NCBI GenBank assembly: GCA_944322375.1
Contig: CALUOX010000001.1
Coordinates: 5,392-69,391 of the forward strand
From: an uncultured Alistipes sp.
GTDB lineage: Bacteria; Bacteroidota; Bacteroidia; Bacteroidales; Rikenellaceae
Direction: 5' to 3'
Length of the DNA stretch: 64,000 nucleotides
Shown: positions 36,041 to 40,097 of the stretch, in pieces
Layout of the letters: every line of letters begins with the position of its first letter
How positions within the stretch are numbered: position 1 is the first letter of the stretch
Notes under the pieces: generated by a model
Told to the model about the DNA's origin: nothing
What the model saw: the letters and a program-made list of their open reading frames with translations, nothing else
Databases searched by the model: none
Translations under genes and position numbers: made by a program

Positions 36041-37531
36041 TCAATGGGTCTCGTCGATCCAGTCTCCGTTGGCCTTGATGAGGTCGATGAGCCGGTCGCG
36101 CGCCTCCTCCTGCGGGATGTTGCGTTCTACGACCGTCCGCCCCTTGTAGAGGGTGATGCGTCCCGGTGCGGCTCCCACATAGCCGTAGTCGGCATCGGCC
36201 ATCTCGCCGGGCCCGTTGACGATACAGCCCATCACGCCGATACGGAGGTTTTTCAGATGCGACGTGCGGGCCTTGATCCGTTCGAGTGTCCCCTCGATGT
36301 CGTAGAGCGTGCGGCCGCACGACGGGCAGGCAATGTATTCCGTGCGCGAAAAACGGACGCGGGCAGCCTGCAGAATCATCAGCTCCACGTTGCGCAGCTC
36401 CTCCTCGGAGAAACGGTCGCTCAGGATGCGGATTCCGTCGGCGAGGCCGTCGAGAAAGAGCGGACCCAGATCGGCGGCGGCCTTGACGGCGAGTGCCGTG
36501 AGGTCTTCGTCGTTGTAGCGGCGTTCGACGACGACCGGTTCGCTGTCGTCGAGCGAGAGAATGGCGGCCCGCAGTTCGGCCGTCGGATTCTGCGAGGTGC
36601 TGCGCAGTATGCGGAACGCTTCGGTGATCTCGTCGCGCACGACGGGGGTGAGCAGCCGGCTGCGCCGGCGGTAGCGTGCGGGGGAGTAGCGTTCGGGGCG
36701 TTTTACCTCGAAATGTCCGGCGCGATGGCGGAAGTGATCGGCAAGAAGCTGCGCGACGGGTACCTCGTTTTCGGGCGCTTCGGTCAGCGAGACGCGGATC
36801 GTGTCGCCGATGCCTTCGGCCAGCAGCGCGCCGATGCCGACGGCACTCTTGATGCGTCCCTCCAGACCGTTTCCGGCTTCGGTTACACCCAGATGGATCG
36901 GGTAGGTCATCGCTTCGCGGTCCATCGCCTCGCAGAGCAGCCGGTAGGCGGCGACCATGACGCGGGTGTTGCTCGACTTCATCGAGACGACGACCTGATC
37001 GAACGCTTCCTCGCGGCAGATGCGCAGAAACTCCATTGCGGCGGCGACCATTCCTTCGGGCGTGTCGCCCCACCGGTCGAAGATGCGTTTGGAGAGCGAT
37101 CCGTGATTCACGCCGATGCGCAGCGCGACGCCGCGTTGGCGGCAGCGGGCGATGAGCGCCTGCAGTTCGCCGTGATCGGTGCGGTAGTTGCCCGGATTGA
37201 TGCGGACCTTATCGACGTATTGCGCGGCGACGGCCGCCGCTTCGGGCAGGAAGTGGATGTCTGCGACGACGGCCGTCGGGAATCCGTCGGCACGCAGCCG
37301 CGTTACGATATTTCGGAGGTTTTCGGCCTGCCGTGTGCCTTGGGCTGTGAGCCGCACGACGGGTGCTCCGGCACGGGCGATACGCTCGATCTGGGCGACG
37401 CTGGCGGCCGTGTCGAGCGTGTCGGTGTTGGTCATCGACTGGATGGCGACGGGTCGGTCGCCGCCGATGGTACAGCCGCCGATGCGGACTTCGTGTGTCC
37501 GACGGCGGCGGTATTGCGTAAGATCGATCAT
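36041..37531 (-). CDS. ispG: (E)-4-hydroxy-3-methylbut-2-enyl-diphosphate synthase IspG
   Basis: IQSMTNTDT, VADIHF, RINPGNY, RIGVNHGSLS, HLGVTEAG, GDTIRVSLTE, CPSCGRT, MGCIVNGPGEMADAD. Start MIDLTQY; -7 box at 37551-37558. Confidence 0.97.
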   Translation of the reverse strand: MIDLTQYRRRRTHEVRIGGCTIGGDRPVAIQSMTNTDTLDTAASVAQIERIARAGAPVVRLTAQGTRQAENLRNIVTRLRADGFPTAVVADIHFLPEAAAVAAQYVDKVRINPGNYRTDHGELQALIARCRQRGVALRIGVNHGSLSKRIFDRWGDTPEGMVAAAMEFLRICREEAFDQVVVSMKSSNTRVMVAAYRLLCEAMDREAMTYPIHLGVTEAGNGLEGRIKSAVGIGALLAEGIGDTIRVSLTEAPENEVPVAQLLADHFRHRAGHFEVKRPERYSPARYRRRSRLLTPVVRDEITEAFRILRSTSQNPTAELRAAILSLDDSEPVVVERRYNDEDLTALAVKAAADLGPLFLDGLADGIRILSDRFSEEELRNVELMILQAARVRFSRTEYIACPSCGRTLYDIEGTLERIKARTSHLKNLRIGVMGCIVNGPGEMADADYGYVGAAPGRITLYKGRTVVERNIPQEEARDRLIDLIKANGDWIDETH

Positions 37532-37641
37532 CTCTGAGCGGATTTGTCCACAAAAGTAACGATTTATTCGCAATTTTCGTCCCGAGGAGGAAGGGCGAAT
37601 GTTTCCGGCAGGCCGATGCTTGAGATTTCCGGAAAATTCCG

Positions 37642-37649
37642 TATCTTTG
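37642..37649 (+). promoter_or_regulatory. -7 box (TATCTTTG) for lipoprotein/radical SAM operon
   Basis: Exact consensus about 62 nt before ATG 37712. Confidence 0.65.
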
Positions 37650-37711
37650 GCTTTGTATTCCGGCGCTGCCGCTGCGCCGGTTGCCAATGTGAACCTGAAA
37701 AAACGAATCCG

Positions 37712-37918
37712 ATGAGACGAATCTGTATCTTTTGCTTGTCGCTGTTGGGGTTTGCGGCAGGATGCGAACCCGAATCGCCGGACATGTACGGGCCGGCTCC
37801 TGCGGAGTATGAAGTGAAGCCACAGGCCGAAGCTGACGGGGCGGCGGTCGATCCGGCGGAGGGAAACTCTGCGGAACAGGATGTAGCGGATGAGTCGCTT
37901 CCGACGGAGCAGGAGTGA
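37712..37918 (+). CDS. 68-aa lipoprotein, putative radical SAM substrate (TIGR04134-like, truncated)
   Basis: MRRICIFCLSLLGFAAG-C lipobox, then EPESPDMYGPAPAEYEVK and an acidic tail; 38 nt upstream of the radical SAM gene. Confidence 0.8.
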   Translation: MRRICIFCLSLLGFAAGCEPESPDMYGPAPAEYEVKPQAEADGAAVDPAEGNSAEQDVADESLPTEQE

Positions 37919-37956
37919 GGAATGAATCTTCGATACCGAAAAACGGGGGCAGCGAT

Positions 37957-39036
37957 ATGAAACGGCGTCGGATCTCCCTGCGCAAGCGGTTGGGACTGGA
38001 ACTCTATCGGCAGCTTCATCGGGAGGCTGTGGCGCGGCATGAATTGCGGACGCTTTTCTGGGAATGCACGCTGCGGTGCAATCTCCGGTGCGGTCATTGC
38101 GGCTCGGACTGTACGTCATCGCCGTCGTATGCGGATATGCCGGCCGAGGATTTCTTTCGGGTGCTCGACACGCAGATCACGCCGCATGTCGATCCGCATC
38201 GGGTGATGGTGGTTCTTTCGGGCGGCGAGGTGCTGGTGCGCCCCGATCTGGAACGGATTGGACGGGCGCTCTACGATCGGGAATATCCCTGGGGGCTGGT
38301 TACCAACGGCATGGCGCTGACGGCGGAGCGCTTCGATGCGCTGCTGCGTGCGGGCCTTCACTCGATGACCGTCTCGTTGGACGGTTTCGAGGAGGAGCAC
38401 AACCGTTTGCGCCGCCATCCGCTCAGTTTCGCGCGGGCGGCGGAGGCGGTGCGGCGTGCAGCGGCCGAACCGTCGATCGCCTTCGATGTCGTGACGTGTG
38501 TCACACCGGCCCTGCTGCCTCGTCTGGATGCCTTTCGCGATTACCTGATCGGCTTGGGCGTGCGCAGCTGGCGGCTTTTCGCCATCTTCCCTGCGGGACG
38601 TGCGGCGGCGGACGACGCGCTGCAGCTCTCCGACGGGGAGTTTGGCTCTCTCATGGAGTTCATCCGGCGCACGCGGCGTGCCGGAACCATCGAGTGCAAT
38701 TATGCCTGCGAAGGCTTCCTCGGCGGTTATGAAGCCGAGGTGCGCGACTGGTTCTATCATTGCGATGCGGGCGTCTCGACGGCCTCGATCCGGGTCGACG
38801 GCTCGATTTCGGGATGTACCTCCGTGCGGAGCGATTTCTCGCAGGGAAATATCTATCGGGATGATTTCTGGGAGGTGTGGAGCTCCCGCTTCGAGCTTTT
38901 CCGCCGCCGTGAATGGATGCGGACAGGTGCCTGCGCCGAGTGTGCCGTATGGCGCTACTGCGAAGGCGGACCGATGCACCTGCGCCTTGCTGACGGCGGA
39001 GTGATGCATTGCAGCTATAAAAGATTAAATCATTGA
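37957..39036 (+). CDS. Radical SAM/SPASM enzyme (TIGR04133-like rSAM/lipoprotein system)
   Basis: LFWECTLRCNLRCGHCGSDC, LSGGEVL, VTNG, VSLDG; SPASM Cys array CDAG...GC...GNI...CAEC..WRYCEGG...HC. Confidence 0.92.
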   Translation: MKRRRISLRKRLGLELYRQLHREAVARHELRTLFWECTLRCNLRCGHCGSDCTSSPSYADMPAEDFFRVLDTQITPHVDPHRVMVVLSGGEVLVRPDLERIGRALYDREYPWGLVTNGMALTAERFDALLRAGLHSMTVSLDGFEEEHNRLRRHPLSFARAAEAVRRAAAEPSIAFDVVTCVTPALLPRLDAFRDYLIGLGVRSWRLFAIFPAGRAAADDALQLSDGEFGSLMEFIRRTRRAGTIECNYACEGFLGGYEAEVRDWFYHCDAGVSTASIRVDGSISGCTSVRSDFSQGNIYRDDFWEVWSSRFELFRRREWMRTGACAECAVWRYCEGGPMHLRLADGGVMHCSYKRLNH

Positions 39037-39075
39037 TTTCTAAAACGATGGATGGTGTTCCTCCGAAACTTGCGA

Positions 39076-39123
39076 GGGGGGGGGAGAAAAGCGATCGCAA
39101 AGGGCGGTTTTCTCTTTTTTTTG
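39076..39123 (+). terminator. Probable terminator after radical SAM gene (G9-containing arm)
   Basis: G9-agaaaa pairs imperfectly with ttttctc followed by a T run. Confidence 0.5.
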
Positions 39124-39155: not shown

Positions 39156-40097
39156 ATGAAATTCCTATTCCGACAAACGTTTGTGCCTGCACTGTTGTCT
39201 TTGTCCGTTGCGGGTTGCAACGGCGATGTCTTTATCGACGATTACCTTCCCGACCCGCCGGCCTCGATTGCCGGACAGAGCGGAGAGACGTCGGAGATCC
39301 GTTTCGAGGCTTCGAACTGGGATATTCTGGGTGTCGGAGGCCTCAGCGGTAGGACATACGATCTGGACGGCAACCTCCTTTCCGTCGGGCCGCTCGGCGG
39401 CGAAGGGCTCCTCTGCATGGAGTACGATGACGGTCTGGTCAGCTTCCGGATCGAGCGCGGCGATTACAGAACCCTGAAGATCGTATTTGAGGAGAACATG
39501 GGCAGCGGCCCTTTCCGCTTCACGCTGACGGTCGGAAACCTGTGCGAGAGCGACAGCATCGACGTGACGTTCAATCCCACCGGAAAGTATCGGGTCGAAC
39601 GTGTCGTCTATGATTACGAGCGGTTCAGTTTTACCTATACACGGGTGGAAACGGTTACGACGTATCACATTGACAACCGCACATCGTCGAAGCCCGTTTC
39701 GATAGAGGCCTATCCCTATGCCGGTCGTTCGCGGCTGATTCGGTTTTACAACAACGAAGACCAGCGTGAGGATATTCTCGGGCTGCCGCTGCCGCTGATA
39801 CCGATTCCCGATATCGAAGACGAACAGCCCGTCATGCGGGAGTCGGAGGTTGCGTTTGCATGTTATTATACGGACGTCATGCTGCCGGCCGACAAACGGG
39901 ATCTCTCGGAGACTGTAACGGTCAATGCCGGTGAAGCCAAAGATATCGAGGTGATGCTCCAATATATGGAGTATTCACTCCCCTATACGCTCTATACCAC
40001 CAATTCCGAAACGGGGAAGGACCGGGCCTTTACCGGAGAACTTCAGGGGGAAGAACCGTACAATTATTTCATCTTCCGCAAAGATTTTGAAAAGTAA
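39156..40097 (+). CDS. Hypothetical lipoprotein
   Basis: Lipobox SVAG-C then NGDVFIDD; beta-rich; own -7 box at 39126-39133. Confidence 0.8.
   Translation: MKFLFRQTFVPALLSLSVAGCNGDVFIDDYLPDPPASIAGQSGETSEIRFEASNWDILGVGGLSGRTYDLDGNLLSVGPLGGEGLLCMEYDDGLVSFRIERGDYRTLKIVFEENMGSGPFRFTLTVGNLCESDSIDVTFNPTGKYRVERVVYDYERFSFTYTRVETVTTYHIDNRTSSKPVSIEAYPYAGRSRLIRFYNNEDQREDILGLPLPLIPIPDIEDEQPVMRESEVAFACYYTDVMLPADKRDLSETVTVNAGEAKDIEVMLQYMEYSLPYTLYTTNSETGKDRAFTGELQGEEPYNYFIFRKDFEK

Follow-up and report, generated by a model that had tools for sequence, protein, structure and literature searches.

What a radical S-adenosylmethionine (SAM) enzyme does beside the gene for a very small lipoprotein is the question raised by a 64,000-nucleotide (nt) stretch of DNA from an uncultured Alistipes species (assembly GCA_944322375.1, contig CALUOX010000001.1, positions 5,392 to 69,391 of the forward strand), referred to below as the window. 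Two genes on the same strand encode, in this order, a 68-amino-acid (68-aa) lipoprotein precursor and a radical SAM enzyme with a SPASM domain, the second gene beginning 38 nt past the stop codon of the first. A reading of the bare sequence (the original prediction) had described this pair and the elements around it, all of which we found in place, and had proposed that a Met-Tyr-Gly-Pro peptide is cross-linked by the enzyme. We conclude, with a probability of roughly 60%, that the two genes form a minimal TIGR04133 "rSAM/lipoprotein" unit for protein maturation, acting by the mechanism set out below.

The enzyme fits its family in every respect that we scored. Against the profile of TIGR04133, the family named in the original prediction, it gains 548.4 bits (E value, 5.6e-165; profile positions 1 to 349 of 350), passing the cut-off of 425, and the Pfam models Radical_SAM and SPASM score 63.7 and 35.7 bits. 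The CX3CX2C motif is formed by C41, C45, and C48, the SPASM region carries seven cysteines (C251, C269, C287, C326, C329, C335, and C352), and both sets are invariant in 26 members of the family. By score, by cysteine motifs and SPASM domain, and by the adjoining lipoprotein gene, the enzyme is a member of TIGR04133. It has neither a signal peptide nor a recognition element (RRE) domain of the type found in clusters for peptides that are made on ribosomes and modified after translation (RiPPs), and an AlphaFold2 model (predicted local distance difference test [pLDDT] score, 91.8) likewise places only a single N-terminal helix (residues 8 to 27) before the core. The nearest solved folds to this model are SkfB, SuiB, BlsE, the anaerobic sulfatase-maturating enzyme (anSME), and PqqE, with a template modeling (TM) score of 0.67 for anSMEcpe. 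These are generic SPASM/twitch neighbors, and we set the fold search aside as a guide to mechanism, along with a sequence search of solved structures, which returned only distant radical SAM matches (BlsE, AbmM, and PqqE). The closest relatives of the enzyme are found in Alistipes and Rikenellaceae assemblies. A profile search of the whole assembly detected one TIGR04133 gene and no full-length TIGR04134 protein, the lipoprotein family with which TIGR04133 is paired.

What the enzyme may act upon is indicated by its neighbors in other genomes. Upstream genes were gathered from 22 loci of related genomes and from the 80 nearest loci of other assemblies; in nearly all of these roughly 100 loci, the immediate upstream neighbor of the enzyme encodes a lipoprotein with an X-Tyr-Gly-x-Pro site. 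A count blind to the motif covered the nearest upstream open reading frame (ORF) in the 78 loci with enough upstream DNA: 74 of these ORFs contain Tyr-Gly, 72 have a lipobox-like signal, and 60 show YG.P or YG..P. The Y-G-x-P-like motif of the original prediction is thus real and conserved in the partners. Among the 18 loci lacking YG.P or YG..P, a second SPASM enzyme occupied the position in 3, a site-less, domain-bearing lipoprotein in 1, and a longer spurious ORF had been picked in 2; the remaining 12 deviated in the site itself, having Pro shifted by one position (YGVR.P, later than usual), Ala instead of Gly, or YGPL/YGT. We also built a motif profile from 121 distinct sites; since these were chosen by Y-[G/A] with a nearby Pro, Tyr is fixed in it by construction. 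Position -1 is Met in 62%, Cys in 14%, and Glu in 11% of these sites, +1 is Gly in 88%, and +3 is Pro in 78%, while +2 is mostly Val, Thr, or Pro, with V, T, P, A, and S all seen.

The distance of the site from the lipid-anchor Cys ranges between 1 and 106 residues; the site occurs in one to three copies per protein (the tandem site CSDPDSVMYGPAPDMYGPPMPMYGPAP of L013/L036 is an example), and is present with or without a folded domain. Besides the lipoprotein signal, it is the sole conserved feature of the partner proteins. That a short motif is kept across otherwise unrelated partner architectures, often in tandem, argues for a modification site rather than a binding surface, and we hold with some confidence that X-Tyr-Gly-x-Pro is the target of the enzyme. 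Two partners deserve separate mention. One, a 384-aa lipoprotein (L036:1020-2174), contains three copies of a beta-sandwich, two of them directly preceded by E-Y-G-x-P; the site is thus independent of the lipid anchor. The other (L042:4854-5312) adjoins the enzyme and has the domain without a Tyr-Gly site (...NSNPVYVSLKGRVTD...), and a site-bearing paralogue lies just before it; the site-less protein may be a decayed or nonsubstrate copy.

The window precursor carries this site in a very small frame. As read from the DNA, the 68-aa protein consists of MRRICIFCLSLLGFAAG followed by CEPESPDMYGPAPAEYEVKPQAEADGAAVDPAEGNSAEQDVADESLPTEQE. In its signal, a positive n-region precedes a hydrophobic core, and the lipobox is A-A-G-C; M1, G13, and C18 are invariant across 24 aligned partners. 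From Cys18 onward the protein reads CEPESPD-MYGP-APAEYEVK before an acidic tail; the start of the mature protein and the site region, CEPESPDMYGPAPAEYEVK, are thus followed by 32 residues, 10 of them acidic and none basic, which we take to be disordered. The mature part amounts to 51 aa, the protein ends 40 residues past MYGP, and a Pfam scan of the precursor gave no domain matches. Against TIGR04134 it scores 15.3 bits (E value, 0.015; cut-off, 39.8) and aligns with profile positions 8 to 45 of 150 only, as expected for the truncated relative that had been predicted; it falls below the threshold because the folded domain is absent. The acidic residues at Cys18 and directly after it (CEPESPD) resemble the surface-export signal of Bacteroidota. 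Other partner classes, unlike this precursor, are basic right after Cys, so the surface exposure proposed in the original prediction would not be general in the family.

A frame of 68 codons might be no gene at all. More than 50 contigs, drawn from many samples, carry gene calls for an identical or near-identical protein, which has no name in NCBI, and two diverged homologues (85% and 72% identity) adjoin the same enzyme on contigs of their own. The 72%-identical homologue has an in-frame insertion of six codons between Cys and the motif, PDMYGPAP is identical in all three versions of the short precursor, and the acidic tail is kept in P0002 and P0003. Pairwise ratios of nonsynonymous to synonymous substitution rates (dN/dS) are 0.29 to 0.32 for the peptide versus 0.06 to 0.07 for the enzyme, with small numbers from three lineages, and the deficit of nonsynonymous changes in the short gene is significant (binomial P, 0.003 to 0.016). 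On these sequence comparisons, the short gene is under purifying selection in three lineages, and the intact frame, the in-frame indel, and the conserved tail favor a translated gene, small as the numbers are. Some public gene calls use an upstream ATG, giving 100 aa (MLEISGKFRIFGF...; 37617-37918). Because the signal peptide would then lie in the interior of the protein, and the promoter-like box described below inside the longer frame, we took 37712 as the start, and the 100-aa call is probably a miscalled start.

These data also bear on whether the ORF is a functionless, decaying remnant of a full-length TIGR04134 gene, the real substrate being a second lipoprotein on contig C22 (described below) or none at all. 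One could point to the full-length partner of the orthologous locus L088, to the score of the small protein below the TIGR04134 cut-off, and to the existence of that second candidate substrate. We nevertheless regard decay as highly improbable, given that the ORF is intact on so many contigs and persists in three lineages at a dN/dS near 0.3 with an indel that respects the frame, that the M-Y-G-P site and its flanks are unchanged among the three versions, and that independent partners of 51 to 79 aa adjoin the enzyme in other species.

How the minimal form may have arisen is suggested by the closest orthologous locus, L088, in which the enzyme is 83% identical, ispG lies upstream, and the same two genes lie downstream. 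Its partner is a true TIGR04134 member of 144 aa (91.2 bits; ...CDEPQEDMYGSPYAEYSVKGRVTD...), and in its sequence (...MYGSPYAEYSVKGRVTD...) the Pfam domain CarboxypepD_reg begins at residue 33. Full-length TIGR04134 proteins in general pass from the site straight into a CarboxypepD_reg-like beta-sandwich, and the domain, with its D-[VI]-D-G-x-x-N-G motif, is found in L088, L034, L038, and L099 and is absent from the 68-aa precursor. The L088 partner has the domain, while the window precursor diverges into its tail after CEPESPDMYGPAPAEYEVK; the domain was thus lost and the site kept, as had been predicted. By the same sequence comparison, APAEYEVK is what is left of the first beta-strand of the lost domain. 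A DNA alignment of the intergenic and small-ORF region of the window with L088 was too diverged to reconstruct the deletion.

The window copy is minimal but not exceptional. The original prediction held that lipoproteins of this kind usually continue into a folded domain, which does not agree with the wider sample: about two-thirds of the adjacent partners in the 80 nearest (Alistipes/Rikenellaceae) loci are without one. The domainless partners are of four types: proteins of 70 to 110 residues with the pattern CSTVKNAPK...R-I-V-V-MYGVRPP, proteins of 110 to 170 residues in which more PDG-type or MYGV repeats occur together with helical spacers, acidic proteins of 51 to 61 residues, and proteins of 78 to 79 residues with two sites. 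The folded domain is dispensable. The enzyme itself occurs in most of the Alistipes sampled (19 of 25 genomes; 5 of these 19, including the window genome, have no TIGR04134 match) and in Bacteroides thetaiotaomicron; an even sample of 251 Bacteroidota genomes contained it in 4, all of them Bacteroidales.

Scanning the same genome for site-bearing, lipoprotein-like ORFs revealed a second candidate substrate outside the window, at C22:23099-23407 on the plus strand. This domainless lipoprotein (95 to 102 aa; ...LFGFGTSCSGTRSATKSG...PPLRLMYGVPPRGY...) includes CSGTRSATKSG and is homologous to domainless partners that adjoin TIGR04133 in other Rikenellaceae (best E value, 2.5e-16, in a database of 134 proteins). 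Its gene comes with a hairpin of its own, after which there is a T-run, and lies between phosphofructokinase-like and ispF-like genes, as judged from their N termini alone. We looked beside it for an enzyme gene, intact or degraded, and found none. The single TIGR04133 enzyme probably serves both the 68-aa precursor and the C22 lipoprotein. Hence, with an unlinked Tyr-Gly lipoprotein elsewhere in the genome, the description of the unit as self-contained is correct only in part. The related genomes G011 (C1:2011866-2012273) and G023 (C30:195422-195814) each have a gene for a full-length TIGR04134 lipoprotein at a great distance from their TIGR04133 gene, suggesting that unlinked substrates are common.

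These findings fit a simple order of events. In the mechanism that we propose, the cytoplasmic radical SAM/SPASM enzyme would bind the newly made 68-aa prelipoprotein and use the 5'-deoxyadenosyl radical to modify M25-Y26-G27-P28 ahead of export. General Sec, Lgt, and LspA would then export the peptide, lipidate Cys18, and cut off the signal peptide, leaving a lipid-anchored peptide of 51 residues. The signal peptide would take the place of a RiPP leader, with LspA and the lipoprotein sorting routes replacing a dedicated protease and transporter. An enzyme without a signal peptide that depends on SAM and on reducing equivalents is expected to be cytoplasmic, whereas the lipoprotein in its mature form lies beyond the cytoplasm; they could meet only before Sec export. 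From this and from the precedent of anSME, we infer that modification precedes export. In keeping with the proposal that the product needs no dedicated protease or exporter, no such gene is conserved beside the pair in the flanks of the 80 related loci, given that the two genes downstream of the pair in the window recur only in L088 and that ispG lies upstream of the enzyme in only 10 of these loci (with 1 to 4 partner genes between). There is also no small PqqD-like gene near the pair.

What is done to the site is less clear. Tyramine spliceases are radical SAM/SPASM enzymes that cut tyramine out at X-Y-G, with MYG and LYG as native sites (PMC11414181, PMC10533398, PMC11626197). Splice tags derived from them are PIRPLYGLPI and AVAA(M/G)YGVVFPG, the latter of which is also x-Y-G-x-P-like; binary splicease types need no Y protein, and PlpXY splices tagged proteins even without a leader (PMC11414181, PMC10533398, PMC11626197, PMC9811515). 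On sequence grounds, Met-Tyr-Gly-x-Pro is a close likeness of these splice sites, and its near-invariant Gly suits splicing better than cyclophane formation. By analogy, the enzyme might excise tyramine from X-Tyr-Gly, which would leave an alpha-keto-beta-methionine (a ketoamide) in the backbone and change the mass by -135.07 Da. We consider such splicease-like chemistry a serious possibility that falls somewhat short of an even chance.

Several observations weigh against splicing or against the mechanism as a whole. Across 26 TIGR04133-family members, the best non-self E value is that of TIGR04103 (2.6e-40), which we equate with the PlpX family on the strength of the assignment of PlpX to IPR026482 (PMC11002830), the tie between the two accessions being our own inference. 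The window enzyme scores 100.8 bits on this model, short of the cut-off of 725, although published binary spliceases may also fall outside it. TIGR04103 is effectively tied with TIGR04053, AhbD, TIGR03913, and NirJ2, so the sequence gives no specific kinship to spliceases, and we rejected the NCBIfam ranking, in which TIGR04103 comes first by E value yet is tied with unrelated families, as a test of it. A few partners have Ala for Gly (MYASP, CYAPY, and AYAPL); Gly is essential for splicing, and such variants fit strict X-Y-G splicing less well. That the enzyme acts ahead of Sec targeting is itself an assumption of the pre-export model. No biochemical data on TIGR04133 members were found in the searchable literature. 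Finally, we modeled a natural fusion of partner and enzyme, a read-through in one frame from L069 (stop read as Gln), with AlphaFold2 and a 24-row alignment of such fusions. The enzyme part folded well, partner residues 17 to 83 had pLDDT values below 50 with a slight rise at the second MYG, and the site was not confidently docked.

It is conceivable that a lipoprotein which does not dock is a partner of another sort, such as a regulator, and that the enzyme acts on a small molecule or on some other protein; adjacency alone is, after all, no proof of a substrate relation. We find this extremely improbable, since a short and often tandem motif spread over unrelated architectures is the pattern of a modification site, and since a cytoplasmic enzyme would encounter the lipoprotein only before its export.

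In many SPASM enzymes, such as SuiB, PqqE, and the triceptide cyclophane synthases, the reaction is a cross-link at an aromatic residue. An intramolecular cross-link at Tyr, as in the original prediction, would give a small ring, a change of -2 Da, and a lipidated, cross-linked product, the candidates being a three-residue cyclophane that joins Tyr26 with the +2 beta-carbon or a link to Tyr33. The presence of SuiB and PqqE among the nearest solved folds is in its favor, and every residue seen at +2 bears a beta-hydrogen. The partners, though, conserve no second residue at a fixed spacing. An aromatic residue at +7 is found in only ~46% of sites and, in the copies examined, belongs to the first strand of the domain or to its remnant, so that the second Tyr of the predicted MYGP(xxxxY) core is no general feature of the partners. 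Moreover, the middle residue of cyclophane motifs varies. A near-invariant Gly at +1 would not be expected of such a motif and is the hallmark of splice sites (PMC11414181). We therefore judge cross-linking to be unlikely.

The variation of that Gly in a few partners would agree as well with some other change at or next to Tyr-Gly (epimerization, hydroxylation, a change of the Tyr side chain, or backbone cleavage), in which case the site might be a recognition or attachment point in the envelope. The chemistry of the SPASM superfamily is very diverse, and the second-best hidden Markov model matches of the family are scattered over unrelated functions (AhbD, NirJ, MftC, and TIGR04053). Nothing speaks positively for any specific one of these alternatives, however, and the motif is close to a known splice site; we rate them, taken together, as quite unlikely. 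Tyramine excision thus stays the chemistry that we favor for the two-gene maturation unit.

The features of the locus are collected in Table 1.

Table 1. Features of the lipoprotein/radical SAM locus and its neighbors (window coordinates)
Feature	Position	Strand	Evidence or remark
ispG, divergent neighbor; synteny marker outside the system	36041-37531	-	TIGR00612, 444.8 bits (cut-off, 280)
Promoter-like site TTGAGA-16-TATCTT with overlapping TATCTTTG	37620-37649	+	Within the 180 nt that separate the divergent ispG from the small ORF
68-aa lipoprotein precursor gene	37712-37918	+	Domainless partner and, probably, what the enzyme modifies
Lipoprotein signal peptide MRRICIFCLSLLGFAAG with lipobox Cys18	37712-37765	+	Read from sequence; Cys codon, 37763-37765
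M25-Y26-G27-P28, X-Tyr-Gly-x-Pro site of the family	37784-37795	+	Proposed modification site
APAEYEVK and 32-aa acidic tail	37796-37915	+	Comparison with the L088 partner
TIGR04133 radical SAM/SPASM enzyme, 359 aa	37957-39036	+	NCBIfam and Pfam profiles
Weak terminator-like hairpin (6 pairs), then T-run	39093-39123	+	Sequence scan
Lipoprotein, 313 aa, without family match	39156-40097	+	Subthreshold ETX_MTX2 only (E value, 0.083)
Outer-membrane beta-barrel, 413 aa	40107-41348	+	PagL (lipid A 3-O-deacylase) domain match, 34.7 bits

The order of genes is a divergent ispG, the 68-aa gene, the co-oriented enzyme gene, and then the gene for an unrelated lipoprotein. The promoter consensus around -7 in Bacteroidetes is TAnnTTTG, which TATCTTTG (37642-37649) fits, the TTGAGA-16-TATCTT element itself spanning 37620 to 37647. 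Both boundaries described in the original prediction are present, but neither exceeds chance: promoter-like matches numbered 1 versus 0.6 expected from shuffled sequences, and terminator-like matches 2 versus 1.9. The gene pair is solid, whereas its promoter and terminator, as sequence matches, are only plausible. Scans of the window against Rfam and for tRNAs gave no matches. We considered the downstream 313-aa lipoprotein and the PagL-like barrel as members of the system and rejected them, since they recur only in the closest relative, L088.

At ispG-linked loci of some other genomes the cluster is larger. In L078 (2008-7071), four TIGR04134-like lipoprotein genes, an unassigned 170-aa ORF, a second and distinct radical SAM/SPASM gene, and a gene for a 61-aa partner (CEPEGDQQIYPAPAYAPL...) accompany the TIGR04133 enzyme, and larger clusters are also seen in L079, L072, L046, and L047. 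The best match of the second radical SAM/SPASM enzyme of L078 is GeoRSP_rSAM (110 bits, far below the cut-off). In L046, L047, and L072, a second radical SAM/SPASM enzyme is the immediate upstream neighbor of the TIGR04133 gene.

The comparative data reduce the question of TIGR04133 function to one short site, and the window offers a natural minimal substrate for it, with a single site, no domain, 51 mature residues, and one enzyme, in a genome with two candidate substrates. We found no papers describing the TIGR04133 or TIGR04134 family in the searchable literature. The sole mention of TIGR04134, in PMC11611037, attaches the accession to a C-terminal domain (type B) of the type IX secretion system, seemingly in error for a different entry, and is unrelated to the family discussed here. 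According to a review (PMC10849128), Scott et al. (2022, Chem 8:2659) screened all radical SAM-SPASM proteins for YG-rich neighbors and reported such enzymes from 189 genera, with 27 confirmed pairs; their survey may already cover the TIGR04133 family.

A broader suggestion, which we offer as doubtful, is that gut Bacteroidales make lipid-anchored "spliceotides" by TIGR04133-catalyzed tyramine excision, with the signal peptide as leader, LspA as protease, and the Sec, Lol, and surface routes as transporter. If so, the product would be an envelope-tethered or vesicle-borne peptide with an electrophilic alpha-ketoamide, and the 51-residue window product would be the smallest natural spliceotide of the lipid-anchored kind. 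The ketoamide group, a known pharmacophore, inhibits proteases of the serine and cysteine classes (PMC9811515). This invites the speculation that the peptide blocks proteases of the host or of competitors; a reactive handle in the envelope would be another speculative role. Splicing, if it occurs here, would extend beta-amino-acid and ketoamide biochemistry from secreted peptides of cyanobacteria and proteobacteria to membrane-anchored proteins of gut bacteria that are abundant in humans and animals, and it would mean that a system for modifying peptides can rely on the housekeeping lipoprotein pathway in place of a leader protease and exporter.

Among known systems, the nearest is the TIGR04133/TIGR04134 pair itself, which NCBIfam defines as hypothetical equivalogs. 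The window shares with it an above-threshold enzyme downstream of a Y-G-x-P lipoprotein gene; its partner keeps the signal and the site but is without the beta-sandwich that forms most of the TIGR04134 model. The spliceotide systems, PlpX/PlpY/PlpA and PcpXYA (type I) and RhaX/RhaA, RcsX, and RasX (binary type II), resemble the window family in that a radical SAM/SPASM enzyme stands beside an X-Tyr-Gly precursor, position X is most often occupied by Met, Pro is frequent two places after Gly, and sites can be repeated. They differ in the precursor leader, which is of the Nif11/NHLP type or helical in place of a lipoprotein signal peptide, and in that the tyramine loss known there is a prediction for the window enzyme.

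The anSME enzymes mature exported sulfatases and are common in gut Bacteroides. Like the window enzyme, anSME is a compact radical SAM/SPASM protein (~360 to 370 aa) without an RRE; it acts in the cytoplasm on a short motif before Sec export, as we propose for the window enzyme. Its target, unlike the Tyr-Gly of the window, is the Cys or Ser in C/S-x-P-x-R of sulfatases, which becomes formylglycine, and the partners of TIGR04133 are nonenzymes; the 68-aa precursor lacks that motif. SuiB, PqqE, and the triceptide synthases likewise are peptide-modifying radical SAM/SPASM enzymes with an aromatic target, and SuiB and PqqE are top fold matches; they need, however, a conserved second residue or an RRE-bound leader, and the window pair has neither. 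Classical RiPP clusters include a leader protease and exporter or an RRE, in contrast to the window pair, which has none of these. The selidamides (PMC8784127) are, like the proposed window product, ribosomal, modified, and lipidated peptides. In their case a GNAT acyltransferase of the cluster adds the lipid, whereas in the window the housekeeping lipoprotein pathway would do so through the lipobox.

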